Part shown: positions 2-36,100 of the stretch, one piece after another
How positions within the stretch are numbered: the first letter of the stretch is position 1
Layout: every line of letters starts with the position of its first letter
DNA from: Terriglobales bacterium
Lineage (GTDB): Bacteria; Acidobacteriota; Terriglobia; Terriglobales; Acidobacteriaceae
Length of the DNA: 64,000 nucleotides
Reading direction: 5' to 3'
Assembly: GCA_041691575.1 (NCBI GenBank)
Contig: JBEPUJ010000014.1
Span: 24,238-88,237 of the forward strand
Notes under the pieces: model-generated
What the model saw: only the letters and a program-made list of their open reading frames with translations
Databases searched by the model: none
What the model was told of the DNA's origin: nothing
Program-made: the position numbers and the translations under genes

Positions 2-664
2 TTTTCTTTTTCAGGATCGAAGCTGCCCGGCTACATCCTGCCCTCCATCCCGCCGCTCACTATTCTTGCCGCCGATTATCTCTATCGCAATCGCCGTATC
101 GGTCTGCCCCGCTGGCTCCTCTGGTCCCATGCTGCCATCTGCGCCATCCTTGTCTTCGTCCTTGTGCTTGCCCCGCAGCACATGAAGTACGAGACCCTTA
201 TACCCTCCGTGCAATGGCTCCTGATCGCCGGTGGCTCGGCGCTGGTCATCGGCGGCGCCGTCTTCATCATCATTCGCCGCTGGGGGATCGCCCAGCTTGT
301 CAACGCGACCTTCATCCCCGTGGCGGCGTCGCTCGTCTTTCTGCTCGGCTTCCACGGCAAGGACCTCGATCTCAACTACTCCGCCCGCCCCCTTGCCCGC
401 GAGATCCAGCGTCTGGATCCCAACGAGAAGATCCTGGCTCTCCATGAAGTCAAGCGCGACATGGACTACGGCCTCGCCTTCTACCGCAACAGCCCTCTGG
501 TCCACTACAACACCGACGGCGTCCCGGCAGAAGAGCATCTGCTTGTCATCCCTGCCAACAACGCATCTGAACTCAACCAGTGGCTTGCCGGGCGCGTCTA
601 TAAGCCCCTATTTCTCTATGACACGCAGGGCCTCGAAGTTTACAAGGTCTATGCCAGTCACTAA
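2..664 (+). CDS. GT39/ArnT-like membrane glycosyltransferase, C-terminal part (5' end outside window)
   Basis: The frame of ORF 164..664 is open back to the window edge and reads FSFSGSKLPGYILPSIPPL, the SKLPxYILP motif of ArnT-like enzymes, followed by TM helices. Confidence 0.7.
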   Translation, partial: FSFSGSKLPGYILPSIPPLTILAADYLYRNRRIGLPRWLLWSHAAICAILVFVLVLAPQHMKYETLIPSVQWLLIAGGSALVIGGAVFIIIRRWGIAQLVNATFIPVAASLVFLLGFHGKDLDLNYSARPLAREIQRLDPNEKILALHEVKRDMDYGLAFYRNSPLVHYNTDGVPAEEHLLVIPANNASELNQWLAGRVYKPLFLYDTQGLEVYKVYASH

Positions 665-10435: not shown

Positions 10436-10609
10436 CTGCTGTTTCTATTTTACCGAATGGGGCGGAACTAAAGTGCCACGGCTGGGATATATTTATTTGG
10501 CATCGTAAGTGTCTGTTTTGATATAACTTGCGAGATTTACCCGGTTGGTTTTGGAGAGTCTGGGGGCTTGACATCACGCAGGAGCGTTGGTAACAGCGCC
10601 CAGAGTCGA

Positions 10610-10711
10610 AATACAGGGATCTCTCCACTGCGCCGTGCGATGAAACTGCACGGCTTCGGTCGAGATGACGTTTTGGGGAGCATGAGTAAAAGTTCGTCGA
10701 GATGACGTTTT
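10610..10711. repeat. REP-like palindromic repeat (family C, copy 1, with partial tandem tail)
   Basis: AATACAGGGATCTCTCCACTGCGCCG...CGGCTTCGGTCGAGATGACG, near-identical to 12238-12298; GTCGAGATGACGTTT repeats at about 10697-10711. Confidence 0.8.
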
Positions 10712-10734
10712 TAGAGCGCTACTAAAGTTTCTAA

Positions 10735-10853
10735 GGAAGGTCTGATTAAGTCTCCGAAGATTCCCTCAGCGGCTAAAGCCGCATTGCGGGCAAGTCACTT
10801 ACGGCACGGCTGAAGCCGTGCCCTTAACAGAGCCTGACTTAATCAAAGGCTCC
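10735..10853 (+). mobile_element. 119-bp MITE with IS5-like ends carrying a REP-like double hairpin (family A, copy 1)
   Basis: TIR GGAAGGTCTGATTAAGTC / GACTTAATCAAAGGCTCC; 4-bp duplication CTAA at 10731-34 and 10854-57. Confidence 0.8.
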
Positions 10854-10878
10854 CTAAGGCAAATCTGTCACAAGAGGG

Positions 10879-12201: not shown

Positions 12202-12237
12202 AGCCCGGGGAACAAGCGGTGGCTGGAACCAAGGAAA

Positions 12238-12346
12238 AATACAGGGATCTCTCCACTGCGCCGCGCGATAAAACCGCGCGGCTTCGGTCGAGATGACGTG
12301 GATTTGGGGTGGGCGAAACCGTGGCTTCGGTCGAGATGACGTTTTT
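12238..12346. repeat. REP-like palindromic repeat (family C, copy 2, with partial tandem tail)
   Basis: Matches 10610-10670; GGCTTCGGTCGAGATGACG recurs at about 12323-12341. Confidence 0.8.
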
Positions 12347-12439
12347 GCAGTGGAATTAAGCGGGTTCTGAATTCGTCTAGAGGATCTCGAAACTCGCGCC
12401 GTGCAGTTTATCTGAGACGAGTGGGTTAAGATGGCGTGC

Positions 12440-13624
12440 ATGGATATTGCTGCGATTCAGGCTGCGCTTCGTGACCAGAAATTGGATGGGTGGCTGTTTT
12501 ACGATCACCATCATCGCGATCCACTTGCCTACCGCATCCTGGGGCTCGACGAAGATTCTTTCGTCTCCCGCCGCTGGTTCTACTTCATCCCCGCGCAGGG
12601 CCAGGCCGGCAAACTCGTCCACCGCATCGAGTCCGGCAAACTCGATACTCTGCCCGGCTCCAAGGAAGAGTACTCGTCGTGGCAGGAGTTGGAGCAGAAG
12701 CTCGAAACGATGGTGGGGGGAGCAGGAAAAGTCGCGATGCAGTACTCCCCGCGCAATGCGATTATGTACGTCTCCATGGTCGATGCCGGGACGATTGAGC
12801 TGGTTCGCGGCATGGGAATGGAAGTCGTCTCTTCCTCCGATCTGGTCAGCATCTTCGAGGCCGTCCTCAGCGAAGCCCAGATTGCCAGCCACTACGCGGC
12901 CCAGCAAAAGCTCGACGAAGTGCTTCGCGCCGGGTGGAACCGCATCGGCGAAGCTGCCCGCAAGGGGGGCACCGACGAGCACACCGACGAGCACAGTATG
13001 GTCACCTTCCTGCAGGAGGGCATCGAGCGCGCCGGTCTCTGGACCGATCACGGCCCCAACGTCTCGGTCGGCGCGAACTCGGCGGACTCGCATTACGAGC
13101 CTACGGCAGCGTCCTCCAGGCCCATTCGCTCGGGCGACTTCGTCCTGATCGATATCTGGGCCAAACTCGCGCATGATCCACAGGCCGTCTGGTACGACAT
13201 CACCTGGACCGGCGTTGTTGACCGCGAGCCGACAGAGCGCGAGCAGAACATCTTCGAGACCGTCCGTAACGCTCGCGACGCATCCATCGCTGTGGTCAAA
13301 GATGCCTTTGCCTCGAATACCCCGATTGCCGGTTGGGAGGCGGATGACGCCGCTCGCGAGGTGATTCGGCGAGCCGGGTTTGGGGAGTGGTTTACGCATC
13401 GGACGGGGCACAATATCGGCACGGTGATCCATGGGAATGGAGCGAATCTCGACAATCTGGAGACGCACGATGAGCGGCGGATTCTGCCGAATACCTGCTT
13501 TTCGGTGGAGCCGGGGATCTATTTTCCCGGTGAGTTCGGGGTGCGCAGCGAGATCGATATGATGACACGAGCGGGGAAGGCCGAGGTGACGGGAAGGATA
13601 CAGACGGAGTTGGTGCGGGTGTAG
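12440..13624 (+). CDS. M24 family metallopeptidase (Xaa-Pro peptidase-like)
   Basis: DIWAK, YDITW, HRTGHNIG, SVEPGIY, GVRSEID metal ligands; alternative start 12431. Confidence 0.9.
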   Translation: MDIAAIQAALRDQKLDGWLFYDHHHRDPLAYRILGLDEDSFVSRRWFYFIPAQGQAGKLVHRIESGKLDTLPGSKEEYSSWQELEQKLETMVGGAGKVAMQYSPRNAIMYVSMVDAGTIELVRGMGMEVVSSSDLVSIFEAVLSEAQIASHYAAQQKLDEVLRAGWNRIGEAARKGGTDEHTDEHSMVTFLQEGIERAGLWTDHGPNVSVGANSADSHYEPTAASSRPIRSGDFVLIDIWAKLAHDPQAVWYDITWTGVVDREPTEREQNIFETVRNARDASIAVVKDAFASNTPIAGWEADDAAREVIRRAGFGEWFTHRTGHNIGTVIHGNGANLDNLETHDERRILPNTCFSVEPGIYFPGEFGVRSEIDMMTRAGKAEVTGRIQTELVRV

Positions 13625-13643
13625 CCGCCGCCGCGTAACTGCT

Positions 13644-14072
13644 ATGATGACAACTGAAATGGCGAATAACGTACAGGTTCCGGCGCGCGCCGCTGGCAGA
13701 TCTTCTTCGATGGCGCTTCTGGTGCTGGTTGCCGGATGGCTGGTTCCGGGTGCAGGTCATCTGCTGCTGGGAAAATGGGTGCGGGGACTGGTGCTGTTTG
13801 TGACGCTGGTGCTGATGTTCAGCATCGGCATCGCTCTGCGGGGCAAGATCTACTCGCCCAATACAGGCGATCTGCTGGACATTCTGAACTTTGCGGGCGA
13901 CCTGGGGACGGGGCTGCTCTATGTTGTGGCGAAGGTCTTTGATCTTGGCCAGGCGGCGGTGGTCACGGTTACGGGCGACTATGGGACCAAGTTCATGGTG
14001 GTGGCGGGGCTGCTGAACGTAATTGCGGCGGTGGACGCGCATTCGCTGGCGACCGGGAGGAAAGCCTCTTGA
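13644..14072 (+). CDS. Small membrane protein (DUF6677-like)
   Basis: WLVPGAGHLLLGK...AGLLNVIAAVDA pattern. Confidence 0.6.
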   Translation: MMTTEMANNVQVPARAAGRSSSMALLVLVAGWLVPGAGHLLLGKWVRGLVLFVTLVLMFSIGIALRGKIYSPNTGDLLDILNFAGDLGTGLLYVVAKVFDLGQAAVVTVTGDYGTKFMVVAGLLNVIAAVDAHSLATGRKAS

Positions 14073-14074
14073 CG

Positions 14075-14245
14075 ATGACGCATTTTGAAGCAGTGCTGCT
14101 GTTCGCCCTGTTTACCTCGGTGGTCTTCGGCATTACGCAGCGGTCGGAGCCACGGATGATGATCCGGTTTGGCGCGTTCTGCTTTGGGTTGTTCGTGGTG
14201 GGGACGATTGCGGCAAGCTGGTTGATGTGGCTGATCAAACACTAG
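14075..14245 (+). CDS. 56-aa two-TM membrane protein (not in the supplied track)
   Basis: Hand translation MTHFEAVLLFALFTSVVFGITQRSEPRMMIRFGAFCFGLFVVGTIAASWLMWLIKH; starts 2 nt after the preceding stop. Confidence 0.65.
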   Translation: MTHFEAVLLFALFTSVVFGITQRSEPRMMIRFGAFCFGLFVVGTIAASWLMWLIKH

Positions 14246-14302
14246 AGCAAATTTCTTAATGGTGTATCGCGACCTGTGGCAAGGAGATGGATCGGGCCTT
14301 CA

Positions 14303-14430
14303 GAGGCTGCTGAAGAACTCCGTTGCGGTGCGCAAAGAGCCCTCAGCGGCTAAAGCCGCACTGCCAGCAAAGCATTTACAGCACGGCTGAAGCCGTGTCC
14401 TTAACAAAACTGGACTTTTTCAGCAACCTC
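14303..14430 (+). mobile_element. 128-bp MITE-like element with GAGGYTGCTGAA ends carrying the same double hairpin (family B, copy 1)
   Basis: Ends GAGGCTGCTGAAGAA / TTTTTCAGCAACCTC; CTTCA duplicated at 14298-302 and 14431-35. Confidence 0.75.
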
Positions 14431-14461
14431 CTTCAGCCGTTGCCCTCCGGTACTCCCGCGG

Positions 14462-14507
14462 ACCTAGGGCTTTGCCCTAAGCTGGTATAGTCCGCGCCCT
14501 TGGCGCT
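14462..14507. repeat. Two-hairpin REP-like element (single copy here)
   Basis: TAGGGC-TTT-GCCCTA ... GCGCC-CTT-GGCGC. Confidence 0.45.
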
Positions 14508-14549
14508 ATGGTCGCCGAATTCCATATACCACAAGAAAATCCGCTCTGG

Positions 14550-14668
14550 GGAGCTTCTGATTAAGTCAGGCTCTGTTAAGGGCACGGCTTCAGCCGTGCC
14601 GTAAGCGCGTTGCTTGCAGTGCGGCTTTAGCCGCTGAGGGAATCTTCGGAGACTTAATCAGACCTTCC
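14550..14668 (-). mobile_element. Family A MITE, copy 2 (119 bp)
   Basis: Reverse copy of 10735-10853; CTGG duplicated at 14546-49 and 14669-72. Confidence 0.8.
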
Positions 14669-14688
14669 CTGGGGCTCAGCTCTGCAGG

Positions 14689-16722
14689 TCAGGGGCGGTC
14701 GTTGAGCTGGTGTTCCAGTTTTGACACGAGTTCCAGCAGCTTCTGTTTTTCCTGGATGGCTTCGTCGATATCCTGAATGGCGAGCACAGCGCCCACGATA
14801 CTTCCGTTCTTTCCGCAGACGGGCGCAGCGGTCGTCCTGATCCAGGCGTGGGTGCCGTCGCCGCGCCGATAGAGAATCTCTTCGGGATCGGTTGTCTGGC
14901 CACTGCCGATGGCGCGTTCGATGGGATATTCTTCGGCCCCGAAGCTGCGTCCATCGGCGTGGAAGAGATTCGATTGGCGGTAAGTATCAATACTTTTACC
15001 GATGGGGATGGCGCGGCGTAATATCGCCTCCGCCCGAGGATTGCTCATAAGGACGCGGCCGTTAGGAACGTCTGCGATGAGGATGCCTACAGGGACGGCG
15101 TCGAAGATGGCCCTGAGAAGAGCCTCGCTTTCGCGGAGAGCCTCTTCAGCTTTTTTGCGGTCGTCGATATCTTCGAGATTTCCATACCAACGGATAATCC
15201 CGCCGGAGGAGTCCCGGCGCGCCGCCGCGTGGGAGCGCACCCAGCGCCACACTCCATCGCCGTGGCCGATACGAAATTCGATATCCAGCGAACGTCCGCT
15301 TCGCAGGGAAGCGTTCCATCGATGAAGGGTTGGCACAACGTCGTCGGGATGCAGTCCCTTGATCCAACCGTCGCCGTGCGTTTGTTCCGATGTCAATCCC
15401 GTGGCCGTCTGCCAGAGCGGGCCCGCTTCGAGAATCATGCCTTGGGGATCGCTTGTCCAGGGAACCTGAGGACTCAGCTGGACGGAGTGGCGGTAGTGGT
15501 CTTCGCTCTCGCGAAGAGCCTCTTCGGCGAGCTTGCGTTTGGTGATGTTGATGACGGCGATGGAGATGCCGATCACCTCATCGGCTTCATCGCGGACGGG
15601 CTGGTAGCTGACGAGAAAGGTCCGGGGATGACCATCGGCGTTGGGTCGTGGGCTGGAGATTTCGAGATCGTTGAAGGATTCCCCCCTGAGAGCGCTCCGG
15701 ATATATGGTTCGAGAGTAGGGAAGAGCTCGGGGATCATCTCCTGGATAGGTCTGCCAAGATGGTCGGCGACGGGAGCGCCATTGATCTCGGCGAGGCGCT
15801 GGTTGATGCTGATGTAGCGGAGATTGCGGTCGACAAAGCAGAGGCCGACGGGAGCGCCGTCGTAGATTGCCTGCAACTGGGCGAGGCGCTGCGCGGGAAG
15901 GGCTTCGAGGCTGGGCAGCCTGTCGTCGCCGGAAGATTCCGGGCCGGCGGTAAGTGCCAGCGGCCAGACGGAGAGAACGCTGGGCAGGTCACATGCGGGA
16001 ATGGGAGGGCCATAGAGCCAGCCCTGGCCGCGATCGCAGCCCAGCCGGAGGAGCATGTCGGCCTGGGCTTTGGTCTCGACGCCTTCGGCGACCGTGGTGA
16101 GGCCCAGGCTATGGCCGAGGCCGATGACGGCAGCGACGATCTTTCTGCTCTCACGCGTGTCCGACATCTCGCGGATGAAGCTGGCGTCGACCTTGAGTTC
16201 GTCGAAGGGCAGGGACTGGAGATGACGGAGGCTGGAGTAGCCGGTGCCGAAGTCGTCGAGGGCAAGGCGTACACCGAGAGTCTTCAACTGCTGCGCGATG
16301 GAAAGCGCCTGGTCCATGTTGTCGATCAGAGCGCTCTCGGTGATCTCGAGGACGAGCCGGGAAAGAGAAAAACCTGTATCTTGCGCGGCGGAAAGAATTT
16401 GGTCGGGGAGAGAGCGGTCATGAAACTGGAGGGCGGAGATATTGAACGAGATGGAGATATCTTCGGAGTTGGAGCTTGCCGGGGCCGAGACAAAGACCTT
16501 GTGCAATAGATTTCGAGTGAGCGTGCTGATCACGCCGATATCTTCGGCGAGCGGGATGAACACATCCGGCGCGATGGAGCCGTGGGCAGCGTGGCGCCAG
16601 CGGGCGAGGGCCTCGAAGCCGGTGAGGAGGCCGGTGCGTAATTCTACCTGGGGCTGGAAGTAAGGAACGATTTCATCTGCGTCCAGAGCCCTGCGTAGAT
16701 CGGTCGCGTAGGATGCTGCCAT
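14689..16722 (-). CDS. EAL c-di-GMP phosphodiesterase followed by three PAS domains
   Basis: FEALARW, DDFGTGYSSL, AEGVET; three PAS/PAC repeats; no GGDEF. Confidence 0.88.
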   Translation of the reverse strand: MAASYATDLRRALDADEIVPYFQPQVELRTGLLTGFEALARWRHAAHGSIAPDVFIPLAEDIGVISTLTRNLLHKVFVSAPASSNSEDISISFNISALQFHDRSLPDQILSAAQDTGFSLSRLVLEITESALIDNMDQALSIAQQLKTLGVRLALDDFGTGYSSLRHLQSLPFDELKVDASFIREMSDTRESRKIVAAVIGLGHSLGLTTVAEGVETKAQADMLLRLGCDRGQGWLYGPPIPACDLPSVLSVWPLALTAGPESSGDDRLPSLEALPAQRLAQLQAIYDGAPVGLCFVDRNLRYISINQRLAEINGAPVADHLGRPIQEMIPELFPTLEPYIRSALRGESFNDLEISSPRPNADGHPRTFLVSYQPVRDEADEVIGISIAVINITKRKLAEEALRESEDHYRHSVQLSPQVPWTSDPQGMILEAGPLWQTATGLTSEQTHGDGWIKGLHPDDVVPTLHRWNASLRSGRSLDIEFRIGHGDGVWRWVRSHAAARRDSSGGIIRWYGNLEDIDDRKKAEEALRESEALLRAIFDAVPVGILIADVPNGRVLMSNPRAEAILRRAIPIGKSIDTYRQSNLFHADGRSFGAEEYPIERAIGSGQTTDPEEILYRRGDGTHAWIRTTAAPVCGKNGSIVGAVLAIQDIDEAIQEKQKLLELVSKLEHQLNDRP

Positions 16723-16786
16723 GGCTGGCCAGAAGAATACACTCTATAAAGAACGGTTGCACCATAACTTTTGGTAAAGGGGAGAG

Positions 16787-17140
16787 ATGAGCACGGACAA
16801 GATGAGCATGGTTCGAGGGCAAGAGGCGCAGAGCTTCACCCCGGAGGCAGGAATGACGCGGCAGGTACTGGCGCACAACGATCAGTTAATGCTGGTGAGA
16901 CATTACTTTGAGCAGGGTTGGGTGGGCGCGCGGCATAGCCACCCTCATCACCAGTTGGTGTATGTGGTGAAGGGATCGCTGCGCGTGGATATAGATGGGA
17001 AGAAGACGTTCGATGTATCGGCGGGAGACAGTTTTGTAGTCGACGGAGGCGTGGAGCATCAGGCTTCGGCGCTGGAAGCTTCGGAGGTGCTGGATGTGTT
17101 TACGCCGGTGCGGGAAGAGTATCGGGATCTGGTGAAGTAG
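16787..17140 (+). CDS. Cupin, KdgF-like
   Basis: HSHPHHQ...GVEH...DVFTPVREEY. Confidence 0.8.
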   Translation: MSTDKMSMVRGQEAQSFTPEAGMTRQVLAHNDQLMLVRHYFEQGWVGARHSHPHHQLVYVVKGSLRVDIDGKKTFDVSAGDSFVVDGGVEHQASALEASEVLDVFTPVREEYRDLVK

Positions 17141-17216
17141 GGTGGGTGGGGCAGCCGAGGTTGGCTGCCCTACTAGTTAGAGCGGCGTCTCCGGTGGTGC
17201 ATCGGTACCCCAAACC

Positions 17217-17250
17217 GCAGATTCCTCCGCTTCGCTGCGGAATAACAACC
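17217..17250. repeat. REP-like hairpin between convergent genes
   Basis: GCAGATTCCTCCGCTTCGCTGCGGAATAACAA; family assignment from memory, single copy here. Confidence 0.4.
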
Positions 17251-17289
17251 AAAAGGAATCAAAACTCTACACCAATGGGAGTTCCTGCT

Positions 17290-18213
17290 CTAAGGTTTGG
17301 TGGCGCGGTAGAGGCCGGCGGTGCCGAAGGTGTAGCTGGTCCAGGTGGGGTCGGTGAAGCCGGCGTTGGCGATGAGTTCGATCATGCGGGCGGGGCGGGG
17401 GAAGCGGGCTACGGAGTCGGGGAGATAGGTGTAGGCTGCCGGGTCTCCGGAGATGAGGCCGCCGAAGCGGGGGAGAATCTGCTTGAAGTAGAGGTTGTAG
17501 AGCGCTCCGGTGATGCCTTCGGGCTGGTTGAAGTCGAGGATGCCGATCTGGCCGCCGGGGCGGAGGATGCGGTGAAGTTCGGCGAGGCCTGCTTCGTAGT
17601 TGCTCAGGTTGCGGAAGCCGAAGGCTGAGATGACGAGATCGATGGAGTTGTCGGCCAGGGGCAGGTGGAGGGCGTCGGCTTCGATGGGGAGGATGTTGTG
17701 CGAGGCGAACTTTTCGGCTCCGCGGGAGAGCATCTGGTGGGAGAAGTCTACAGCGAGGATGGGGGCGATTTCAGGGTTGTCGTCTCCTATCCTTCGCGAT
17801 GAAGCTGCGAAGGATGGGGCACCCGGAGTGTCTTCCCTCTCGATGAGGGGTTGATCTGAATTTTGTGGCGATTCTCCCACCTTAGCGACGATAGAACTGT
17901 CGCGAAGATGGGGCACCCGGTTTTGTGCTGCTGAGGGGCGGTGCTTGAGCAGGGCGAGGGTCATGTCGCCGGTGCCGCAGCAGAGGTCGAGGGCGACGGC
18001 TTCGGGGCGCTGGAGGATGGGGCGGAAGCTGCGGGCGGCCCGGGACCACCACCAGCGGTCGATGCCGATCGAGAGAACATGGTTGAGCAGATCGTACTTC
18101 GGGGCAATGGTGTCGAACATCTGCTGGACGTTCGCGGCGGCGTCCTGATCGGTGGTGGCGCCGATGGGACGGGCTCCGGTGGTACGTTCGTGTTCGGGTA
18201 GCTGCGCTGCCAT
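17290..18213 (-). CDS. ubiE: UbiE/MenG quinone methyltransferase with a ~55-aa internal insertion
   Basis: MFDTIAPKYDLLNHVLS, LDLCCGTGD, ISAFGFRN, LRPGG; overlaps the aroB stop (TAATG). Confidence 0.9.
   Translation of the reverse strand: MAAQLPEHERTTGARPIGATTDQDAAANVQQMFDTIAPKYDLLNHVLSIGIDRWWWSRAARSFRPILQRPEAVALDLCCGTGDMTLALLKHRPSAAQNRVPHLRDSSIVAKVGESPQNSDQPLIEREDTPGAPSFAASSRRIGDDNPEIAPILAVDFSHQMLSRGAEKFASHNILPIEADALHLPLADNSIDLVISAFGFRNLSNYEAGLAELHRILRPGGQIGILDFNQPEGITGALYNLYFKQILPRFGGLISGDPAAYTYLPDSVARFPRPARMIELIANAGFTDPTWTSYTFGTAGLYRATKP
17785..17920 (-). repeat. Two in-frame copies of palindromic family D inside ubiE (17785-17826, 17875-17920)
   Basis: ATCCTTCGC-GATGAAGCT-GCGAAGGAT-GGGGCACCCG and CCCACCTTAGCGAC-GATAGAACT-GTCGCGAAG-ATGGGGCACCCG. 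Confidence 0.85.
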
Positions 18214-19349
18214 TACCGCTTGCGCTTTCGTGCGGCTGTGGGTTTGGGCGCAGCGGTGTGCTGGCGCATGAGAGCGAGCATGGATTCGGCGGCGGTGAGG
18301 AGTTCGGCGGAGGTGACGTCGCGGACGATCTGGACGGTGCCGATGCCGGTGGGCAGGATGAAGGAGAGCGTGCCGCTGCGGTTCTTCTTGTCGCCGGCGG
18401 TGAGAGCTACCAGCTTTGCGGCGGCGGCCTTGAAGGGCGAGAGCGGGCCGTAGCCGAGGATGAGCGCGATGATGCGATCGGACTGCGCCTGCGTGATGAG
18501 CTTGCGCGATAGGCCGAGGTGAGTGGCGGCGATCGAGCCCCAGCCTACGGCTTCGCCGTGGAGGAGTTGCTTGTAGCTGGTGGCGGCCTCGATGGCGTGG
18601 CCGAGGGTGTGGCCGTAGTTGAGGATCATGCGCAGGCCGGACTCGCGCTCGTCGTTGGCGACGACGTTGGCCTTGACGCGGACGCTGGCGGCGACGACGT
18701 GGGCGAGCGCCCTGGCGTCTCCGCTGAGGACGGCTTCGGCATTCTGTTCGAGGTATTTGAAGAGGCGGGGATCGCGGATGATTCCGGCTTTGACGGACTC
18801 TTGTAGCCCGGCGCGGAGTTGGGCAGGGGGCAGGGTGGCGAGAAGTTCGGTGTCGGCGAGGACGGCGAGGGGATGGTTGAAGCTGCCGACGAGATTTTTT
18901 CCGGCGACGAGATTGACTCCGGTCTTGCCGCCGATGGAGGAGTCGACCTGCGCGAGGAGAGTGGTGGGAATTTGGATGTAGGGAATGCCGCGCATGTAGA
19001 TGGCGGCGAGGAAGCCGGTGACGTCGCCGATGACGCCGCCGCCGAAGGCGATGAGCAGCGAGTCGCGGTCCGCTCCGGCGGTGGCCAGTTGCTGGGCGAG
19101 CGATTCCACGCTGGCGAGACGCTTGTGGGCTTCGCCGCTGGGAAGGAAGAGAACGGTGGGCGGTTGCTTGAAGGAGGCGAGAACCTGCTTGTGCCAGAGG
19201 CCCCAGATGTTGGGCGAGGTGACGATGAAAGGGCGGAAGGGCTTGCCTTGCATCAGCTTGTTGAGGCGCGGCGCGAGCGTCCGCAGGAGACCGGAGGCGA
19301 TGGTGATGTCGTAGGCGGCGGAGGGAGTCTTAAGGGCGATGACTGGCAC
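18213..19349 (-). CDS. aroB: 3-dehydroquinate synthase
   Basis: [36 protein letters not shown]. Confidence 0.97.
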
Positions 19350-19414
19350 AATATCTCCATCGTATCGCGTATTGCGATGATTCTGCGGGGGCTTTTGGGT
19401 AGTAGCATCGAAGG

Positions 19415-20977
19415 ATGGAACAAGTTGATTTTCTTGTGGTCGGTGCGGGAATTGCTGGGCTGAGTGCGGCGATTTGCCTGGCGCGGGTGGGCAAGGTGAT
19501 GGTTGTCACCAAGGAAGAGCTGGCTGAGTCGAACACGGCTTATGCGCAGGGCGGCATCGCGGTGGCGATGGGCGGGGATGAAGATGTGGCGCTGCATCTG
19601 GAAGATACGATGAACGCGGGCGATGGGCTGGTGAACCGCGAGGCTGCCGCGGTGCTCGTGGAACAGGGGCCGAGACGGGTGGAGGAGTTGCTGGCGTGGG
19701 GCACGAAGTTTGACCGCGAAGATGGGGAGCTGATGCGAACGCGCGAGGGCGCGCATAGCCTGCCGCGGATACTGCATGCTAACGGAGATGCTACGGGCAA
19801 GGAGATCGCCGTTTCGCTGCTGCGGCATGTGCGGGAGATGGATTCGATTGAGCTGATGGAATGGACGACCGGCGTTGATCTGCTGGTCGAAGATGGCCGC
19901 GTGGCGGGTGCGACGCTGCTGGATGGCGAGGGCGGCGTGCGAGTCGTTCGAGCGAAGGCGGTGCTGCTGGCCAGCGGAGGTGCGGGGCAGGTTTATAGCG
20001 ATACGACCAATCCGGCGGTGGCTACCGGGGATGGGATCGCGATGGCTTACCGGGCGGGAGCCGAGGTGAGCGATATGGAGTTCTACCAGTTTCATCCGAC
20101 CGCGTTCAGTGCGCCGGGGGCTCCCAGGTTTTTGATGAGCGAGGCGCTGCGGGGTGAGGGAGCGTATCTCGTCAATACGAAGGGCGAGCGGTTTATGGAG
20201 CGGTATCATCTTCTGCTGGAACTGGCTCCGAGGGACGTGGTGGCGCGGGCGATTACGCGCGAAGGGATGGACGGCCCGGTGTATCTCGATATGCGCCATG
20301 TGAAGAAGGATTTGCAGGCGCGGTTTCCGGGGATCTCACGATTTTTAGCCGGGCATCAACTGGAGTTGGGCAGGGATTTGATCCCGGTGCGTCCGGCGGC
20401 GCACTACCTGATGGGCGGGGTGCGGACGGATGTGCATGGGCGGACTTCGTTGCCGGGATTGTATGCGGCGGGGGAGGCGGCGTGTACGGGCGTGCATGGA
20501 GCGAACCGGCTGGCCAGCAATTCGCTGCTGGAGGGGCTGGTGTTTGGAGTACTGGCGGCAGAGGCAGTGCTGGCTGATGGCAGAGATCAGGATGGCAGGG
20601 ATCAAGGATTAGGGAAGAGAGATCAGTCGGCGGATGTGGTTGTGCCGGTTGCCGGTGGGGTCACCGGGGAGGCGGCTACAGAGCGATGGATTACGGAGCT
20701 GCGGAATTTGATGTGGAAGGATGCGGGGCTGCTGCGGGATGCCGCGGGGTTGCAGAGGGCGCAGCGGGGGCTGGATGCACTGGCAGTGACGATGCCGCGA
20801 GGGATGTTCCGGCGGGCTCTGGAGGCTCGCAACCTGCATACCGTGGCGGGCATGATCGTGGCTTCGGCGCTGGCGCGAGAGGAGAGCCGGGGAGCGCACT
20901 ATCGCAATGATTTTCCGCAGAGGGATGCGGTGGGGCGGCACTCGGTGATGAAGTCGGGGCAGTTGAAGTTTGTGTAA
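19415..20977 (+). CDS. nadB: L-aspartate oxidase
   Basis: [55 protein letters not shown]. Confidence 0.95.
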
Positions 20978-21015
20978 AGCTTCGGCGCGGCGCATCGGGA
21001 TGAGACGAAACCTGA

Positions 21016-21094
21016 ATCGACCGCGGATTAAACGGAAAAGTACGGATCAGGCTTTGTCTCTCATCCGTGTTAATCCGTGTAATCCGCGGTCGAT
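21016..21094. repeat. Long inverted repeat between convergent nadB and OMP genes
   Basis: ATCGACCGCGGATTAAACGGA ... TCCGTGTAATCCGCGGTCGAT (20/21 paired). Confidence 0.75.
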
Positions 21095-21117
21095 GTTGTT
21101 TTGCTGGCTGGCGGCTA

Positions 21118-21801
21118 TTAGAAGCGTAGGAAGAAGCCGAATCCGGGTTCGAAGGTTGAGGTGTGGTGCTTGATGGTCAGGTAATTCTGGCCGAAGTCAG
21201 GCGCCAGAAAGAAGACCTGACGGAACTGGCCGCGCAGGCCGAAGTGCGAGGATAAGATCATCTTTTCCGCGCCGATGGAGTAGTAGTAGGCCGCGCGCGC
21301 CTGGGTTTGCAGTGACTGGCCGCCAAAGGGAGTTGGGCGAAAGGCAAGGGTGCCAAGTCCAGCCGCGACGAACGGCTGTACGCCGAGCAAAGTCGGCGTA
21401 TGCGCGACGTATCCCAGGGTGTACTCCGCGACATTGGTCTGAACGCCGCCGGTTGGGGAGCTTCCGGGCAACGGAGAACCGAACGGGGTGAACTTCTCTG
21501 TGTAGCGGGCATAGCCGTAGTTGCCTTCAAACCCGATCAGTGGGGACTTGATATAGCGGAGGGTGACCAGCGCGCCGAGAGTATTGCCGGTATCCAGGGT
21601 TACGGTGGTGGGCTGTGCGTTGATGTTGACGACGCCCTTGCCGCTGCTGTTGAATTGGCCCACTCCGCTGACGCCGAAGTCGATGCGGGAGAGTTGTTTG
21701 GCAAGTGCGGGGGACTGTGCCGTTGCGGATGGTCCTGCGAGCGTGGCGAGCAGGAAAATCGGAAGACTCCAGACACAGGACAGGCGGGACACATTCAACA
21801 T
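21118..21801 (-). CDS. Outer-membrane beta-barrel protein
   Basis: Signal peptide, alternating beta strands, C-terminal GFGFFLRF. Confidence 0.75.
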   Translation of the reverse strand: MLNVSRLSCVWSLPIFLLATLAGPSATAQSPALAKQLSRIDFGVSGVGQFNSSGKGVVNINAQPTTVTLDTGNTLGALVTLRYIKSPLIGFEGNYGYARYTEKFTPFGSPLPGSSPTGGVQTNVAEYTLGYVAHTPTLLGVQPFVAAGLGTLAFRPTPFGGQSLQTQARAAYYYSIGAEKMILSSHFGLRGQFRQVFFLAPDFGQNYLTIKHHTSTFEPGFGFFLRF

Positions 21802-21883
21802 CGAGACGAGACTCCCTTGGGCGGTACGTTTGGATAGAACTGACGCTGCTTTCAGTTTACCCCGGTTGGCGGGGGGATGCCCC

Positions 21884-23221
21884 TCAGGAGGGGACGGAAT
21901 CTTCGGCGGGCTCGACGACGAGCGTGAGTCCTTCGATGCTGCGCACGAGCACGTGAGCGCCTTTGGGGAGGTGGGCCGAACCTTGCAGGGAAGCCTGCCA
22001 GAGCTCTCCGCGGATCGATACCTGGCCGTTAGGGGATAGCGGTGTCTGCGCGATGGCGACAGCGCCGAGCATGGCCTGGGGGCCGGTAAGGACTTTGCCG
22101 CGACGGGCGCGGAGAGCGATCCAGGCGAGGCCGAAGGAGATGGCTCCGAAGCCGATGCCTGCGCCGAGAGCGGTGCCGGTGTGGACCTGCATCTCGGGGA
22201 TGGGGCCGTTGACGAGCGTGGCGAGTCCGAAGACCAGCGAAATGGTGCCGGTGAGCGCGAGGATGCCGTGGCTGGCGAACTTGGTTTCGAGCACCATCAG
22301 CACGACGGCGGCAATCAGCAGAAGGATCGCCGTGTGCCGAATGGGTAGGAGATTCAGGCCGAAGAGGCTGAGCAGGACGAAGAGCGTTCCGAGCGAGCCG
22401 GGGATGATGGTTCCGGGCACATTGAATTCGAGATAGATGAGCAGGCCGCCGAGCACGAGCATAAGCACGGCGAGGTTGGGATCGGTCAGCCGGGTGAGGA
22501 GGCGTTCGCGCAGGGACGGCGGGACGGGAGTGACTTTGGCATTGTGCAGGTTCAGGGTCACGGTGCTGCCGTCGAAGCGCTTGATCTGGCGGCCATCGAG
22601 GGTGGAGAGCAGCGCTTGATCGTTGGGGGCGATGAGGTCGATCAGCTTGAGATTGAGGGCTTCCTCGTCGCTGTAGGACTTGGAGTTGCGGACGGCGTCT
22701 TCTGCCGCCTGCACATTGCGTCCCCGGCGGGAGACATAGGAACGCAGGAAGGCTGCGGCGTCGTTCTCGATCTTTTCCTTGAGAACAGCGTCGGGCTGGC
22801 GGCCTTCGGCGACGGGGTGAGAGGCTCCGGCGTTGGTTCCGGGAGCCATGACGGCGACGTCTGCCGCTTCGAGCAGGAAGAATCCGGCTGACCCGGCGCG
22901 GCTGCCCGTGGGGGAGATGTAGATGATTACGGGGACCGGCGAGTTCTCGATGGCTTCGACCATGACGCGGGTCGATTCGAGCAGGCCGCCCGGTGTGCCG
23001 AGGGAGATGAGGACTGCGCTGGCGTGGAGGCGTGCTGCTTCATTGAGGCCGCGTTGCAGATAGTCGGCGGTGATGGGCTGGATGGTGTCGTGGATGGTGA
23101 GTTTGACCACGACGTTATTGACAACGGTGTTGGACTTTGCGGCGTCAGCGAAGGAGGCTGTGGGTGCGAGACAGGCGAGCGCGATGAAAAAGAGAAAGAG
23201 GAATTTTATAGAGGTCTTCAT
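21884..23221 (-). CDS. nfeD: NfeD long form (ClpP-class membrane protease)
   Basis: TPGGL, RAGSAGFF (Ser), EKIEND (Lys), TM region, C-terminal OB domain (GELWQA). Confidence 0.9.
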   Translation of the reverse strand: MKTSIKFLFLFFIALACLAPTASFADAAKSNTVVNNVVVKLTIHDTIQPITADYLQRGLNEAARLHASAVLISLGTPGGLLESTRVMVEAIENSPVPVIIYISPTGSRAGSAGFFLLEAADVAVMAPGTNAGASHPVAEGRQPDAVLKEKIENDAAAFLRSYVSRRGRNVQAAEDAVRNSKSYSDEEALNLKLIDLIAPNDQALLSTLDGRQIKRFDGSTVTLNLHNAKVTPVPPSLRERLLTRLTDPNLAVLMLVLGGLLIYLEFNVPGTIIPGSLGTLFVLLSLFGLNLLPIRHTAILLLIAAVVLMVLETKFASHGILALTGTISLVFGLATLVNGPIPEMQVHTGTALGAGIGFGAISFGLAWIALRARRGKVLTGPQAMLGAVAIAQTPLSPNGQVSIRGELWQASLQGSAHLPKGAHVLVRSIEGLTLVVEPAEDSVPS

Positions 23222-24927
23222 GGGAGACGCTGTCCGCGGGCCAGCAGGGCCTGCTTCATGGCGAGTGCCGCCGGATTTTTAGGGTCGAGCTTGAGGGCAT
23301 TGCTGACATCGGTGGCGGAGGCGGCCAACTGCTTGGCCTGAAGTTCAATCCGGGCGAGAACAAGGTAGGCGTCGACGGTGGGGCGCAGCTTGAGGGACGT
23401 CTCGGCCTCGTTGCGGGCGGCGTCGGTGTCTCCGGTGTGCGCGCGTACCTGGGCCAGACCGGTGTGGGCTTCGGCGCTGGAGGGATCGGCGGTGATGGCG
23501 GCCTGAAACTCCTGCTCGGCTTCGGGAATGAGGCCCTGGGTGAGGTAGTCCTTGCCTGATTGGGTGTACTCGGTGGCCTGCTGGGCAGGTGGCAGATGAG
23601 CGAGGCGCATGGCGCGCATCTGGTCGAGCTGGAAGGCTGCCTGCCGGAAGGAGGCCTCGGAGTAGGTTCTGCGGATGCGCTCAAGCGGATCGAAGTCGGA
23701 GTTGCCGGAGGAGGCTGGCGCGGCTTTTGCGGTTGGCTTTGTGGTGGCGGGCTTTGGGGATGGCGAAGAGGTTTCGAGGCGGCGGCCGGAGCTGATTCGA
23801 GCCTTCAGCAGGGCGGCTTCGGGATCGGCAGGCCTGAGCTTCAGGGTGAGGTCGACCTCCTGCTGCGCTGCGGCGAAGTCGCCTTGGCGTAGCTGGGCAA
23901 CGGCGAGGTTGTAGTGGTAGTCCGCGTCGCTGGGATCGGCGGTGGAGGCGCGCTGAAACAGGGGAATGGCGTTGCGGCCCTGGCGGCTGGCGGCGACGCC
24001 CTGGTTATTGACCACCTCGGGGAGAGGGAGACGACTGGCGACGAAGGTAAAGGCAGCTTCCGCCTCGGCATATCTTCCGGAGTTGAACCGGGCGAGGCCG
24101 AGGTAAAAACCAGCCTCGAGCGCACGGCGGTCGCTGCGCGGAACTTTGGCGAGAGTTACGGCGGCGTGATCGAAGTCTCCCTGCGCGAACTGGACCTTGC
24201 CGAGCGCGAGCAGAGCGGCAGGATAGTTGGGCGTGATGGCGATTGCCATCTGGAGGCGCTTGATCTGCTCCTGCGGAGACGATGCGCCGACGCCGCGAAT
24301 GTAGTTCTCGAAGGCGCTGAGGGGAACGCCTCCCGCAGCGGAGAGAAAGGTCTGCTGGGCGACGTTGAAGTGAGGATCGATCTGGCGCGCAACCTTCCAG
24401 GCGATGGCGTTTTCTACATCGAAGAGGCGGGGAAGATCGCTTGAGTCGTCGAGCGGTTGAGAGAGTCGCAGCTTGTCGACGTTGAGAATCTGCGCGTGGA
24501 CGGCGATGCGTCCATTGCTGACGGTGTAGCTGCCCACGACGACGAAGTTGGCGTCGAGGGTCTGGGCGATGCGGATCGTGGTGGCGCGGGTGGGCTTGAA
24601 GTCCACGGGGAGACCGAGGTGGTCGAGCGCGAACTGACGGTCGTCATTGGAGATGGTGAGAAAGCCGGCGGAGGTCAGGCGCTGGTTGAGGGTGTCGGGG
24701 AAGGAGTCGCCGATCCAGTCGAGGGTGGGCTGGCCGGAGCGGTTGTCGAAGGGGAGGACGAGAACGACACGTCCGATGACCTCAGCTGGGGCGGCGTCGG
24801 GCGTGGCTGAGGGAGCGGCGGCTGCGGTTTGTGCGAGGCCGGAGGTGGCTGACAGGCAGCACAGAATGAGCGCCAGAGGCAGCCAGTTTTTTCGAAGGAG
24901 CGAGGTCAGTTTGAACGGTCTCAGCAC
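23218..24927 (-). CDS. Exported TPR protein with TolB-like N-terminal domain
   Basis: Signal peptide, VLVLPFDNRSG...LDWIG, multiple TPRs; ATGA overlap with nfeD. Confidence 0.75.
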   Translation of the reverse strand: MLRPFKLTSLLRKNWLPLALILCCLSATSGLAQTAAAAPSATPDAAPAEVIGRVVLVLPFDNRSGQPTLDWIGDSFPDTLNQRLTSAGFLTISNDDRQFALDHLGLPVDFKPTRATTIRIAQTLDANFVVVGSYTVSNGRIAVHAQILNVDKLRLSQPLDDSSDLPRLFDVENAIAWKVARQIDPHFNVAQQTFLSAAGGVPLSAFENYIRGVGASSPQEQIKRLQMAIAITPNYPAALLALGKVQFAQGDFDHAAVTLAKVPRSDRRALEAGFYLGLARFNSGRYAEAEAAFTFVASRLPLPEVVNNQGVAASRQGRNAIPLFQRASTADPSDADYHYNLAVAQLRQGDFAAAQQEVDLTLKLRPADPEAALLKARISSGRRLETSSPSPKPATTKPTAKAAPASSGNSDFDPLERIRRTYSEASFRQAAFQLDQMRAMRLAHLPPAQQATEYTQSGKDYLTQGLIPEAEQEFQAAITADPSSAEAHTGLAQVRAHTGDTDAARNEAETSLKLRPTVDAYLVLARIELQAKQLAASATDVSNALKLDPKNPAALAMKQALLARGQRLP

Positions 24928-24945
24928 AGCTACGAGTATAGAGGG

Positions 24946-26550
24946 TCAACGCGAAGGGGGGAGCGTGAGCGAGGCATTGACGGCGCGGGGAAAGCGAAGG
25001 ACGGCGACCCACTCGCCTTTGCGGTGCGCCTCGAAGACAATCTCTCCGTGCAGCAGGGCAGCAGCTTGCGCGGGGCGGAGGTCGCGATGGAAGTCGAAGA
25101 AGCGCGTGTCGGCGGATACGTTTCGCTTGCCGAGATTGATGGCGCCGGGTGGTGGCTCCCACTTGGTGGAGAAGAGCAGCGCGGTGTCGTAGACGCCGGG
25201 ATCGGCGGCGGCCTGTTGCATCTGCTGGAGAGAGAAGTCGTGAATGGCTGCGACCTTGATGGGGTGTAGGGTGTAGCCGATCTCGGGCCGGGAGAGTTCG
25301 GAGGTGGCCGGCCATGCGGTGAGCACGGTCGCCTGCGGGTAGCGCTGTTCGATGAGATGAACGGCCTGCTGGTGCAGGACGATCATGTCGCGATAGGTGA
25401 GGTTGTCTTCCGGCGCGAAGGCGTAGGGAGGATTGATCCAGATGGCGGAGAGAAAGGCGGCGGCGCTGAGCGCGGCGATGAGCCACCAGCGGCGGAGATG
25501 CCTGCGCCATATCGACACGCAGAGGAGCAGGATCAACGGATACATGGGCAGCAGATAGCGGGTGAGGAGCGCTCCGCCGAGGATGGAGAAGGCGATCCAG
25601 TTGGCCACGAGGATGACGGCGATGGCCTTGAGCGCGGGTTTACGAATATTTTGGGGTGCGTCGGGTGAGGTGACAGGGATCAGAAAGAGGGCGATGGTCG
25701 CGACGACGGGGACGAACAGGTTCATGTGCGTCGTCAGATGAAGGAAGCGGTGCCAGAGGCAGAGCGCGATGCGGTAGGCGCTGAGGTTTGCGGTGGCGTT
25801 GTAGCGGAGATACTCGGGGTTGCCGAAGATGAAGCCGGTGCGGTGATAGTGGAAGGCGTACCAGGCTGCGAGAGGAAGGATGGGGAAGAGGAGCGCGGCG
25901 ATCCAGCTCAGGGTTTGCGACCTGCGGCGGTTCTGGAGAAAGAGGAGTGCCTCCCATAAGGCAAGGGCCGCAGGGGTGATGACTGCGGTCTCTTTCGACA
26001 GCGCGGAGAGGGAAAACAGGATGGCCGCGAAGAGTTGGTTCTTCGTGGTGGTCTGATTGGCTTCGTCGCGGTCGAAGTAGAAGGCCAGTCCCCACAGGGT
26101 GAAGGCAGCGGCGAAGATGTCGGCGTGGGCGAGCGTGCTTTGCGCGAACCAGATGGGGTAGATGGCCGTAAGGGAGGTGACGACGGCTGCTGCCGTGGCT
26201 CCCGCGAGGGTTCTTGCGAGTTTGTAGACGCCGAGCAGGGCAGAGGCGCTGACGATGCAGACCAGAGTGCGGGTGCCGCTGATGACGTATCCGGAGAGGT
26301 GCCACCAGCCTGCGAGCAGGATGGACGGAAGCGGCGGATGGGCGTTGGTGGCGGTGGTGATCGGGATAAGACTGCCGGTGCGGAAGAAGTCCCACGCGGC
26401 AGGAATATAGTAGCCGCCTTCGTCCCAGAAATAAGGGAGGCGGAGGAGGTTGAGGTGAGAGAGATAGATGACAACGAAGAAGAGCGGGAAGAGCATCCAG
26501 AGAGGGATGTCGCCGGACGCGGAATTTTTATTTCCTACAGGGGCGCGCAC
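24946..26550 (-). CDS. GT39/ArnT-like membrane glycosyltransferase
   Basis: LPYFWDEGGYY, AHPPL, LSKETAV, TRYLLP; start uncertain (26550 GTG to 26610). Confidence 0.7.
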   Translation of the reverse strand: MRAPVGNKNSASGDIPLWMLFPLFFVVIYLSHLNLLRLPYFWDEGGYYIPAAWDFFRTGSLIPITTATNAHPPLPSILLAGWWHLSGYVISGTRTLVCIVSASALLGVYKLARTLAGATAAAVVTSLTAIYPIWFAQSTLAHADIFAAAFTLWGLAFYFDRDEANQTTTKNQLFAAILFSLSALSKETAVITPAALALWEALLFLQNRRRSQTLSWIAALLFPILPLAAWYAFHYHRTGFIFGNPEYLRYNATANLSAYRIALCLWHRFLHLTTHMNLFVPVVATIALFLIPVTSPDAPQNIRKPALKAIAVILVANWIAFSILGGALLTRYLLPMYPLILLLCVSIWRRHLRRWWLIAALSAAAFLSAIWINPPYAFAPEDNLTYRDMIVLHQQAVHLIEQRYPQATVLTAWPATSELSRPEIGYTLHPIKVAAIHDFSLQQMQQAAADPGVYDTALLFSTKWEPPPGAINLGKRNVSADTRFFDFHRDLRPAQAAALLHGEIVFEAHRKGEWVAVLRFPRAVNASLTLPPSR

Positions 26551-26554
26551 GCTC

Positions 26555-26866
26555 TTAGTGGACGGGGCCATTGGGCTGCGCGGGAACCTGTTCCAGCGTG
26601 ATCTGGCCAAAGGCCTGCTCGTACTGGGCGAGGTTGTGGCCCAGCACGTTCCAGAGGGCCTTGGCCTGTTGCGGGCTGAGGTAGATGCCCTCGAAGTTTT
26701 TGACGTGAAGCTCTTCAGGGCTGCTCTGGGTCATGGTACCGAAGACGAGAAAGAAGTCCCATACGCTCATGCGCACCTGAACGCTGTTGGCGTAGTCCTC
26801 ACGGTAGTTCTCGGTCGTGGTGAGCTTGAGTGCGGGTTGATCGGCGGGCTGATTGGGCTGGCTCAT
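26555..26866 (-). CDS. DUF3467 family protein
   Basis: YANSVQVRMSVWDFFLVFG...SPQQAKAL; start MSQPNQP lies downstream of the tRNA. Confidence 0.75.
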   Translation of the reverse strand: MSQPNQPADQPALKLTTTENYREDYANSVQVRMSVWDFFLVFGTMTQSSPEELHVKNFEGIYLSPQQAKALWNVLGHNLAQYEQAFGQITLEQVPAQPNGPVH

Positions 26867-26913
26867 TTGAATCGCTTTCGGAAGATACCTGCGGATAATG
26901 GATGATAAAGAGT

Positions 26914-26998
26914 TGGTGCGAAAGGGGGGACTTGAACCCCCACGGATTGCTCCGCCAGATCCTAAGTCTGGTGCGTCTGCCAATTTCGCCACTTTCGC
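26914..26998 (-). tRNA. tRNA-Leu(TAG)
   Basis: GCGAAAGTGGCGAAATTGGCAGACGCACCAGACTTAGGATCTGG...GGTTCAAGTCCCCCCTTTCGCACCA: anticodon TAG, long variable arm, encoded CCA. Confidence 0.97.
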
Positions 26999-27328
26999 GT
27001 AACTATCATCTTAACACTGAATTTCGATATTTCGATGAGAACCGCGCTTTTGGAGACGCGGGTCTTTTATATAACGATTGCATGCTGAACGTATGGGTGA
27101 GTGGAACTCAGGAAAAGCTGATTCCAGAGACTATGATGGACACCTTGCGTCAGGAAGACGGAATCTGCCGGCAACTTTGCCATGCATAGTATGGAAAGTT
27201 CACGGCAGGATGTTGAGAGTCATTTACCTATTTATTTAGAAGCTGAAATTGCGAGTGAATCCAGCCCAACTGCGCCTCAAGGAAGACCGGTTCGACCTGA
27301 ATTTCGACTTGGATCAAGAATCGAGGAT

Positions 27329-28966: not shown

Positions 28967-29000
28967 TCGGGTACGCAGAGAGAGCGAACCTGAAAAAGGA

Positions 29001-30623: not shown

Positions 30624-30953
30624 AGCGGAATCGACATTTCTGCCCCGCCTTGCTTCCATTATTTTTGCCATCGTCTTCCATTCATAAATTTTTAAAAGAA
30701 CAAGTAGGATGCTTATGCCTCTTGTCATAGGCGTGCAGCGGTTCTCTAGGAGATGATCCATGCAGAGGCGCAAACAGAGGTCGCCGATACATAATTTGGA
30801 AGGTCTTGACCGATATTCGATGGATGTTTGCTTCGCCTGTTTCTCCTGGAGTATGGTGGTTTTCGACAAGCTTTAAATGACTTCAACCGGCCGACTACGA
30901 TGAGGTACTACTCGTTTTGGGCATTCAGTAAGGAATGAGAGGTCAAGGCGCGC

Positions 30954-32048: not shown

Positions 32049-32114
32049 TCGGGAGATTCCTAGGCAGCCCGGATCGAGAATTTGCCGGCCAGATGGACTG
32101 AAGAAAGGGAAACG

Positions 32115-33812: not shown

Positions 33813-33822
33813 GAGAGTATCG

Positions 33823-36080: not shown

Positions 36081-36100
36081 CCGGCAAGACGGAGACACTG

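Follow-up and report, generated by a model that had tools for sequence, protein, structure and literature searches.

In a 64,000-nucleotide stretch of a Terriglobales bacterium genome (the window; positions 24,238 to 88,237 of contig JBEPUJ010000014.1, here C14, assembly GCA_041691575.1), the imbalance between G and C on the plus strand reverses inside an intact gene for an M24 metallopeptidase, and we conclude with good confidence that this flip, at about 13.33-13.36 kb of the window, is the joint of a mosaic gene. The M24 gene (12431..13624, plus strand; Pfam PF00557 Peptidase_M24, 1.5e-34) is a Xaa-Pro peptidase-like open reading frame (ORF) of 397 codons whose relatives sit in the Acidobacteriaceae, e.g. 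in Granulicella, Edaphobacter and Bryocella, and the genome around it comprises 5.06 Mb in 196 contigs at 58% GC. The best overall explanation, which we regard as probable, sets this joint within a genome-wide mosaic of tiles that each carry a very strong strand bias. An earlier note on this DNA, made from the letters alone, had reported the flip and the domains and had proposed a local strand-biased mutational process for both.

The flip is plain from simple letter counts, with G18/C22 at 13081-13140 and G29/C9 at 13561-13620 on the plus strand; these hand counts from the earlier note were exact on recount. Skew at third codon positions (GC3 skew) runs along the M24 gene, in bins of 50 codons, as -0.10, 0.00, -0.20, -0.30, -0.28, -0.37, +0.37 and +0.51, and the DUF6677 gene 3' of it stands at +0.39. 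The maximum-likelihood (ML) change point falls between 13357 and 13360, at about codon 309 (2-lnL interval 13306-13384), with third-position G:C counts of 94:143 to its left and 119:48 to its right (Fisher p 2.9e-10), and none of 2000 shuffles attained the observed change-point likelihood. At fourfold sites only, the skew is -0.38 to the left of the flip and +0.57 to the right, so amino-acid composition is not the cause. Across 80 loci from other species and nine genomes of the same genus, M24 skew is uniform over the thirds of the gene (pairwise r >0.9), and this genome is the outlier. Noise or amino-acid effects, which the earlier note had listed as possible undoings of its claim, are excluded by the fourfold sites, the permutation and the uniform orthologues. 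Its argument that a simple inversion cannot put a flip inside an intact gene holds, and inversion through an inverted M24 paralogue is rejected as well, the genome having no second copy and only a 32% identical homologue on contig C7. An origin-like reading of the 13.3 kb switch was also rejected: four distant relatives do go from C-rich to G-rich near M24/DUF6677, but past DUF6677 and at synteny breaks, and dnaA lies on another contig.

The change in skew coincides with a change in ancestry. Among the genomes compared, G006 and G014 are the nearest (DNA 78-91% identical over most genes), and identity of the M24 protein to its G006 orthologue has a change point at codon 297 (296-316, or window 13319-13379), rising from 71% before it to 90% after (likelihood ratio 31). 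Amino-acid identities of the 5' and 3' parts are 71.2% and 90.7% to G006 and 70.2% and 87.6% to G014. A search of a large protein collection found a clade (P0004, P0005, P0012 and P0013) with the reverse pattern, 84.5-79.6% in the 5' part and 78.4-75.3% in the 3' part; this clade is Edaphobacter-like and includes a protein from an Edaphobacter metagenome-assembled genome (MAG). The nearest relatives of the two parts are reciprocal and the breakpoint is localised. In a tree of the 3' part together with DUF6677, this genome forms a clade with G006 and G014 (support 96 in the Shimodaira-Hasegawa-like approximate likelihood ratio test, SH-aLRT), and in the tree of the 5' part it stands alone, not grouped. 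The genome background is closer to G006 than to the donor-like clade (infB 94 vs 83%, nusA 91 vs 89%, DUF6677 89 vs 67%), and because these flanking genes are closer to G006, we infer that it is the 5' tract that was imported. The features that result are a putatively imported 5' tract with a C-rich coding strand (codons 1 to about 300; 12431..13330, plus strand), the junction itself (13306..13384), and a native tract of M24 codons from about 300 to 397 with DUF6677 (13644-14072), which spans 13331..14072 on the plus strand, is G-rich at +0.4 to +0.57 and forms the left edge of a G-rich domain.

The same mosaic occurs in close relatives. Two proteins, P0002 and P0003, are 95% and 92% identical across both parts of M24, and two Logan contigs that were assembled independently from two other samples (L256 and L257; 93% and 90% DNA identity) encode the full-length mosaic protein at 95% and 92% identity and share the flip, with fourfold skews of -0.19 and +0.51 in L256 and -0.25 and +0.32 in L257 on the two sides. 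The flip is therefore a recombination joint, and an assembly chimera is very unlikely. The earlier note had allowed that its switch might prove to be a chimeric assembly or a recombination junction; the former is contradicted by these contigs, and the latter is what we find at M24. In a donor-like locus, L258, M24 is uniformly C-rich (fourfold skew -0.50 in the 5' part and -0.41 in the 3' part), so polarity on the imported side is the donor's, and on the native side it is that of the adjoining G-rich block to the right.

We suggest that a segment of about 0.9-1 kb, M24 codons 1 to about 300, was replaced by recombination in this genome's own lineage, and that the donor may have been a different Edaphobacter-like lineage whose M24 coding strand is C-rich. 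One crossover would have fallen in the conserved 3' third of M24, leaving the protein intact, and everything beyond it (the remaining M24 codons, DUF6677 and the DNA further right) would be native and part of a strongly G-rich block. Such an event would resemble other mosaic genes from recombination, including homology-facilitated recombination, in the reciprocal relatives of its two parts, in a breakpoint placed in the most conserved stretch and in an import of about 1 kb. Unlike the usual mosaic gene, the M24 joint is visible by eye as a flip in composition, because donor and recipient DNA carry opposite and very strong skews. For the bias inside each tile, we would guess at a strand-specific process, of the replication or single-strand-exposure kind, that has been at work for a long time in genomes where rearrangement roughly keeps pace with the relaxation of skew.

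Strand-bias domains independent of gene direction, which the earlier note had described in the window, do exist; they extend over the whole genome and occur throughout the family. Over the whole genome, the skew of 5-kb windows ranges from -0.26 to +0.28 (1st-99th percentile), the standard deviation of per-gene GC3 skew is 0.29, and signed patches 6 kb or longer add up to about 2 Mb. Fourfold skew is nearly equal for plus-strand and minus-strand genes, at +0.61 and +0.65 in G tiles and -0.65 and -0.62 in C tiles, and the plus-strand skews of neighbouring genes on opposite strands correlate (r 0.59). Fourfold GC is 0.80 in skewed tiles vs 0.68 in neutral DNA, and the first two codon positions are shifted a little the same way as the tile. 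Intergenic DNA has the same sign as its tile at only +-0.18, with GC unchanged at 0.53. Fourfold sites carry no AT skew (no T>A); on the G-rich strand, twofold sites lean towards G rather than A and towards T rather than C, which is the deamination direction. The genome's contigs of 100-600 kb are dominated by one sign (e.g. 40% vs 8% in C1 and 62% vs 0% in C8). Large up-jumps fall at convergent gene pairs in 66% of cases and never at divergent pairs, and 59% of down-jumps are at divergent pairs. By gene count, 73% of strongly skewed genes have a C-rich coding strand; counted by coding bases, only 57% lie on the C-rich strand of tiles, and in some tiles of 20-35 kb the share is 14-26%, so transcription does not set polarity. 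A skew driven by transcription, including read-through from convergent operons, was rejected on these large tiles and on the lack of any effect of a gene's own direction. A test for a genome-wide N-domain sawtooth showed only weak asymmetry: the skewness of bin-to-bin changes is 0.05, 0.25 and 0.36 in bins of 2, 3 and 5 kb, and jumps above 0.5 in 5-kb bins number 17 up vs 9 down. A literature search found no published description of this strand-bias mosaic.

Within the window, a hidden Markov model (HMM) on third positions finds at least five changes of sign or strength, and the rough domain map of the earlier note agrees with it. A mostly C-rich domain that holds the rimP-nusA-infB region and continues from a ribosomal-protein operon upstream on the contig covers 1..10153, in the model and in per-gene skew. 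Neutral DNA at 10.2-12.8 kb and a C-rich segment at 12.8-13.36 kb precede the strongly G-rich domain (plus strand) at 13360..26545, where the modelled skew is +0.50 and per-gene GC3 skew is +0.29 to +0.62 in genes on both strands (EAL/PAS, cupin, ubiE-like, aroB, nadB, NfeD, TPR and PMT_2). There the plus-strand nadB, at +0.54, is flanked by minus-strand genes at +0.39 to +0.62, the same plus-strand sign on both strands. A weaker G-rich segment at 26548..30596 forms a separate synteny block (G006:C2 at 1.27 Mb) and is followed by a near-neutral segment at 30599..41464 that is neutral in G006 and G014 too. The C-rich domain at 41467..53752 takes in the edge of uvrC, prfB and the 5' two-thirds of dsbD, and its orthologues in another relative, G002, and in G004 are more skewed (-0.55 to -0.7). 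A neutral transition zone at 53755..56180, starting inside dsbD at codon 400-450 or so, has the same intragenic switch in collinear G006 and G014, and a G-rich domain with the Rce1-like gene, uvrA and later genes on both strands runs from 56183..64000, again in the model and in per-gene skew. The names that the earlier note had given to nadB, uvrA, uvrC and prfB are right, as is dsbD. As a separate observation, the prfB ORF (50257-51225) begins at position 28 of the PCRF profile, an offset that would be expected if a short ORF upstream were joined to it by the usual programmed +1 frameshift.

Tiles of 5-70 kb move with their genes, and in the window they have been juxtaposed by rearrangement. 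In ten relatives from several genera, the nusA-infB-...-M24-DUF6677 series is followed by five genes (19..15) on the same strand, and the region is uniformly C-rich on the M24 strand. In this genome those five genes lie at 21.1-27.0 kb on the minus strand, inverted relative to M24, with a G-rich plus strand; since the relatives' region is C-rich on the M24 strand, inversion of the 21.1-27.0 kb cluster fits this polarity. Synteny with G006 breaks at 10.2-10.9, 12.2-12.4, 17.1-17.3, 27.0-27.4 and 30.6-31.1 kb, and the DNA is collinear from 31.1 to beyond 60 kb. Skew borders coincide with synteny breaks at the 21-27 kb cluster and near 27 and 30.6 kb; this is not so for the borders at 13.36 kb, inside M24, and in dsbD, in collinear DNA. 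A gene for a major facilitator superfamily (MFS) protein between infB and M24 (10879-12201) lies elsewhere in G006 and is not found at that spot in other relatives. Upstream on C14, from -24 kb to -6 kb, a ribosomal-protein operon has the same strand as nusA-infB-M24; in G004, G007 and L258 it lies to the other side of M24, facing it. The genus has therefore seen repeated reshuffling of the gene order at this locus.

Two repeat families have copies around M24. R70, a hairpin repeat of about 70 nt that resembles repetitive extragenic palindromic (REP) elements, has copies at 10601..10679 and 12224..12312, both in plus orientation, which bracket the MFS gene. It has about 105 copies genome-wide, and their orientation tracks local skew polarity 57:14, independent of gene direction. 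The genome also contains five ORFs for Y1 transposases. Y1 transposases of the IS200/IS605 and REP-associated kind act on single-stranded DNA at replication forks and insert strand-specifically, which might tie tile polarity to single-strand exposure; the substitution spectrum of R70 is confounded by its orientation bias. R125, a repeat of about 125 nt resembling miniature inverted-repeat transposable elements (MITEs), with terminal inverted repeats and two hairpins, occurs at 10730..10858 and in an inverted, 93% identical copy at 14528..14670, and this pair brackets MFS-M24-DUF6677. The genome has 111 non-overlapping R125 copies (about 165 BLAST hits), and many are present in G014, G006 and G004. 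R125 orientation and position show no relation to borders that would make it a border marker, only slight proximity to them. An Rfam search of the repeats returned only a sub-threshold Acido-Lenti-1 match. Between DUF6677 and the EAL/PAS gene, 14463-14507 (plus strand) has a sub-threshold match to the Rfam Acido-Lenti-1 RNA (30 bits vs a gathering score of 37, E 5e-4).

A number of our own results weigh against the reading we prefer, in its account of the joint as well as of the tiles. An approximately unbiased (AU) test on the 5' part of M24 alone (298 columns) does not reject a clade with G006 and G014 (p 0.36), and the closest donor found for the 5' tract is only about 84% identical. Other intragenic switches, in dsbD and in a gene at C1:591663-592935, come without a change in ancestry, and a domain border could therefore sit in M24 for reasons other than import. 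In dsbD (52364-54451), the switch from codon ~400-450 is present in this genome, G006 and G014, in collinear DNA with no ancestry change; in G002 and G004, where dsbD has other neighbours, the gene is uniformly -0.6 to -0.8. The C1:591663 gene changes gradually from C to G at fourfold sites in three species, from -0.04 to +0.67 here, from -0.58 to +0.58 in G004 and from -0.38 to +0.9 in G002, with orthologues at about 155 kb in G004 and at about 210 kb on C2 of G002. Genome-wide, 11 of the 18 sharp sign switches are intragenic, with support intervals that exclude intergenic DNA.

The tiles raise further difficulties for that reading. The complete chromosome of G004, a MAG of the same genus sampled as 100 x 20 kb (L126-L225), has bipolar gene orientation, with its minimum at dnaA at 1.24 Mb and its maximum near 3.2 Mb; its leading-strand GC3 skew averages only +0.026, the two signs have roughly equal frequency on either arm, each 0.5 Mb slice contains strong G-rich as well as strong C-rich tiles, and there is no two-arm GC skew pattern. 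In seven complete genomes, the polarity of M24 does not follow consistently from whether the gene is leading or lagging. Orthologues in five genomes have correlated coding-strand skews (r 0.82-0.98), as do bins of 100 codons at fourfold sites (r 0.77-0.86). Between G002 and G004 the excess identity at fourfold sites is only 0.09-0.16, near saturation, and is no higher for purine/pyrimidine class. As fourfold sites are near saturated and skew is kept, each lineage has replaced most of its silent sites and still holds a skew of 0.5-0.8. The absence of T>A at fourfold sites and the mere +-0.18 of intergenic DNA add to these difficulties, as do the R125 copies: 746 consensus differences in 68 copies inside skewed tiles show no strand asymmetry (195 to G vs 183 to C; C>G 45 vs G>C 46), in a spectrum that includes differences common to several copies, many of which may predate insertion. 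Several results thus do not fit a simple form of replication or exposure plus rearrangement, and the evidence against replication plus inversion is drawn from a single complete chromosome (a MAG) and a fairly small set of loci.

These results bear most directly on two other accounts of the tiles. The tiles might be ordinary replication skew, unusually strong, that frequent inversions and translocations have scrambled, so that they are slowly relaxing fossils and the neutral stretches are in mid-relaxation; we hold this as possible, though doubtful. Skew is an established record of inversion and transfer (PMC8941118). In the window, many borders sit at synteny breaks, twofold sites lean in the deamination direction, and the placement of up-jumps at convergent pairs (66%) and down-jumps at divergent pairs (59%) is as expected from inverted co-oriented arrays. 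By our own estimate, the ratio of mean to equilibrium skew in this genome's contigs, about 0.22, matches the ratio of variance to squared equilibrium skew, about 0.2, as expected under a flip-and-relax model. Against this account, each arm of G004 has full-strength tiles of either sign, and the mean leading-strand skew there is several-fold too small; the equally strong skews of G002 and G004 despite some 85-90% turnover at fourfold sites, the intragenic borders common to several species and the weak skew of noncoding DNA also count against it. Much of this same evidence would be accommodated by a local strand-specific process with its own switch points, unrelated to the replication arms, under which the M24 flip would be a border beside an import. 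One strand might, for instance, be exposed or resynthesised again and again from numerous fixed sites, through recombination-dependent or multi-site replication or polar repair tracts. Skew kept between species at near-saturated fourfold sites, the lack of arm organisation in G004, the dsbD switch shared by three genomes in collinear DNA and lacking in G002 and G004 with their differing neighbourhood, the C1:591663 gradient in three genomes, the intragenic majority of switches and the slightly sharper up-jumps (skewness 0.25-0.36) all point this way. On the other side, we know of no such local process in bacteria, a single complete chromosome (a MAG) was examined, this genome's own contigs show the large-scale sign dominance expected of replication arms, the sawtooth asymmetry is weak and vanishes at 2 kb, and at M24 the change in ancestry accounts for the flip. 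We therefore entertain the local process only tentatively. The broader proposition that Acidobacteriaceae chromosomes hold strand-polarity domains by the tens to hundreds, stable over evolutionary time and kept by a local process independent of arms and transcription, with borders that may be intragenic and persist across species, seems to us conceivable but rather doubtful too. For the earlier note's local strand-biased mutational process, this means that its domains stand, family-wide, and that a local, maintained process for domains in general finds some support in the conservation at saturated silent sites, in G004 and in the shared intragenic switches; its own showcase, the M24 flip, is a recombination junction, several other borders coincide with rearrangement breakpoints, and the word mutational is not secured, because intergenic skew is only about +-0.18 and R125 copies are symmetric.

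The same two facts invite an account that is not mutational at all, a bias in fixation that acts on the silent sites of conserved genes, such as a strand-biased form of GC-biased conversion in recombination with relatives. Fourfold GC rises from 0.68 to 0.80 in tiles as intergenic GC stays at 0.53, skew is +-0.63 vs +-0.18, the R125 copies in tiles are symmetric, and the M24 mosaic shows that recombination between diverged lineages occurs. To our knowledge, however, no conversion process tells the strands apart over tens of kilobases; codon positions 1 and 2 and intergenic DNA shift likewise, most of the MITE differences may be older than the insertions, and hairpin elements serve poorly as neutral probes. 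We consider such a bias improbable. Skew arising from transcription (coding vs template strand), amino-acid composition or chance is far less probable still. The C-rich coding strands of 73% of strongly skewed genes and the clustering of jumps at convergent and divergent pairs would suit transcription, but within a tile fourfold skew is equal on either strand, and 57% of coding bases overall, and 14-26% in some tiles, lie on the C-rich strand; as for composition and chance, the flip holds at fourfold sites, is absent from other orthologues and survives permutation. A chimera in which assembly fused two organisms within a conserved gene could have arisen where the divergent tract abuts a multi-copy repeat on its left (12224-12312) and ends within a conserved coding stretch on its right, since an assembly graph may change path at such points. 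The same mosaic and flip in two independent assemblies of other samples, and the similar distance at which both flanks of the tract share their nearest relatives, leave it scarcely any probability. We accordingly retain the mosaic-gene joint within a tile mosaic as our preferred explanation.

The tiles can be compared with several known systems. They resemble replication-associated GC skew (chirochores, leading strand G>C) in acting at the level of the strand, in their independence of gene direction, in being strongest at silent sites with a slight shift at positions 1-2, in having borders often at rearrangement breakpoints, and in the dominance of one sign on this genome's contigs. Typical bacterial skew is about 2.5% (PMC8941118), and the tiles exceed it about tenfold, with raw skew to 0.3 and fourfold skew of about 0.63. 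They also differ from replication skew in lacking T>A at fourfold sites, in alternating over 5-70 kb with neutral stretches, in the absence of arm organisation in G004, in being kept at saturation, and in barely affecting intergenic DNA and MITEs. Animal mitochondrial DNA, with its long single-strand exposure, has fourfold skew of similar size and the same deamination direction at twofold sites; mitochondria have one polarity and a strong AT component, whereas here tiles of both polarities share one chromosome and purine content differs strongly between strands. The jump at 13.36 kb, the stepwise fall to the C-rich 41-54 kb and the second jump at 54-56 kb recall mammalian N-domains, in which skew jumps at origins and declines gradually. 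Unlike N-domains, the genome-wide sawtooth is weak (0.05-0.36), sharp down-jumps occur too, and the first jump of the window is a recombination joint.

Overall, the M24 gene illustrates that under a very strong strand bias a recombination joint in an intact gene can be read from silent-site composition, which offers a cheap marker of mosaic genes for soil metagenomes. The wider pattern carries more weight: a silent-site bias as strong as that of animal mitochondria which ignores gene direction and, in one complete relative, the replication arms. Should the tiles be relics of past rearrangements, gene order in these genomes would change at roughly the pace of silent-site evolution, itself an unusual regime. 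If the domains are local, they would imply an undescribed bacterial mode of recurrent one-strand exposure, resynthesis or biased conversion. Such a process would call into question the practice of reading strand asymmetry in bacteria as the mark of one origin and one terminus, and would touch origin prediction, skew-based checks for misassembly, codon-usage inference and phylogenetics in a dominant soil phylum.

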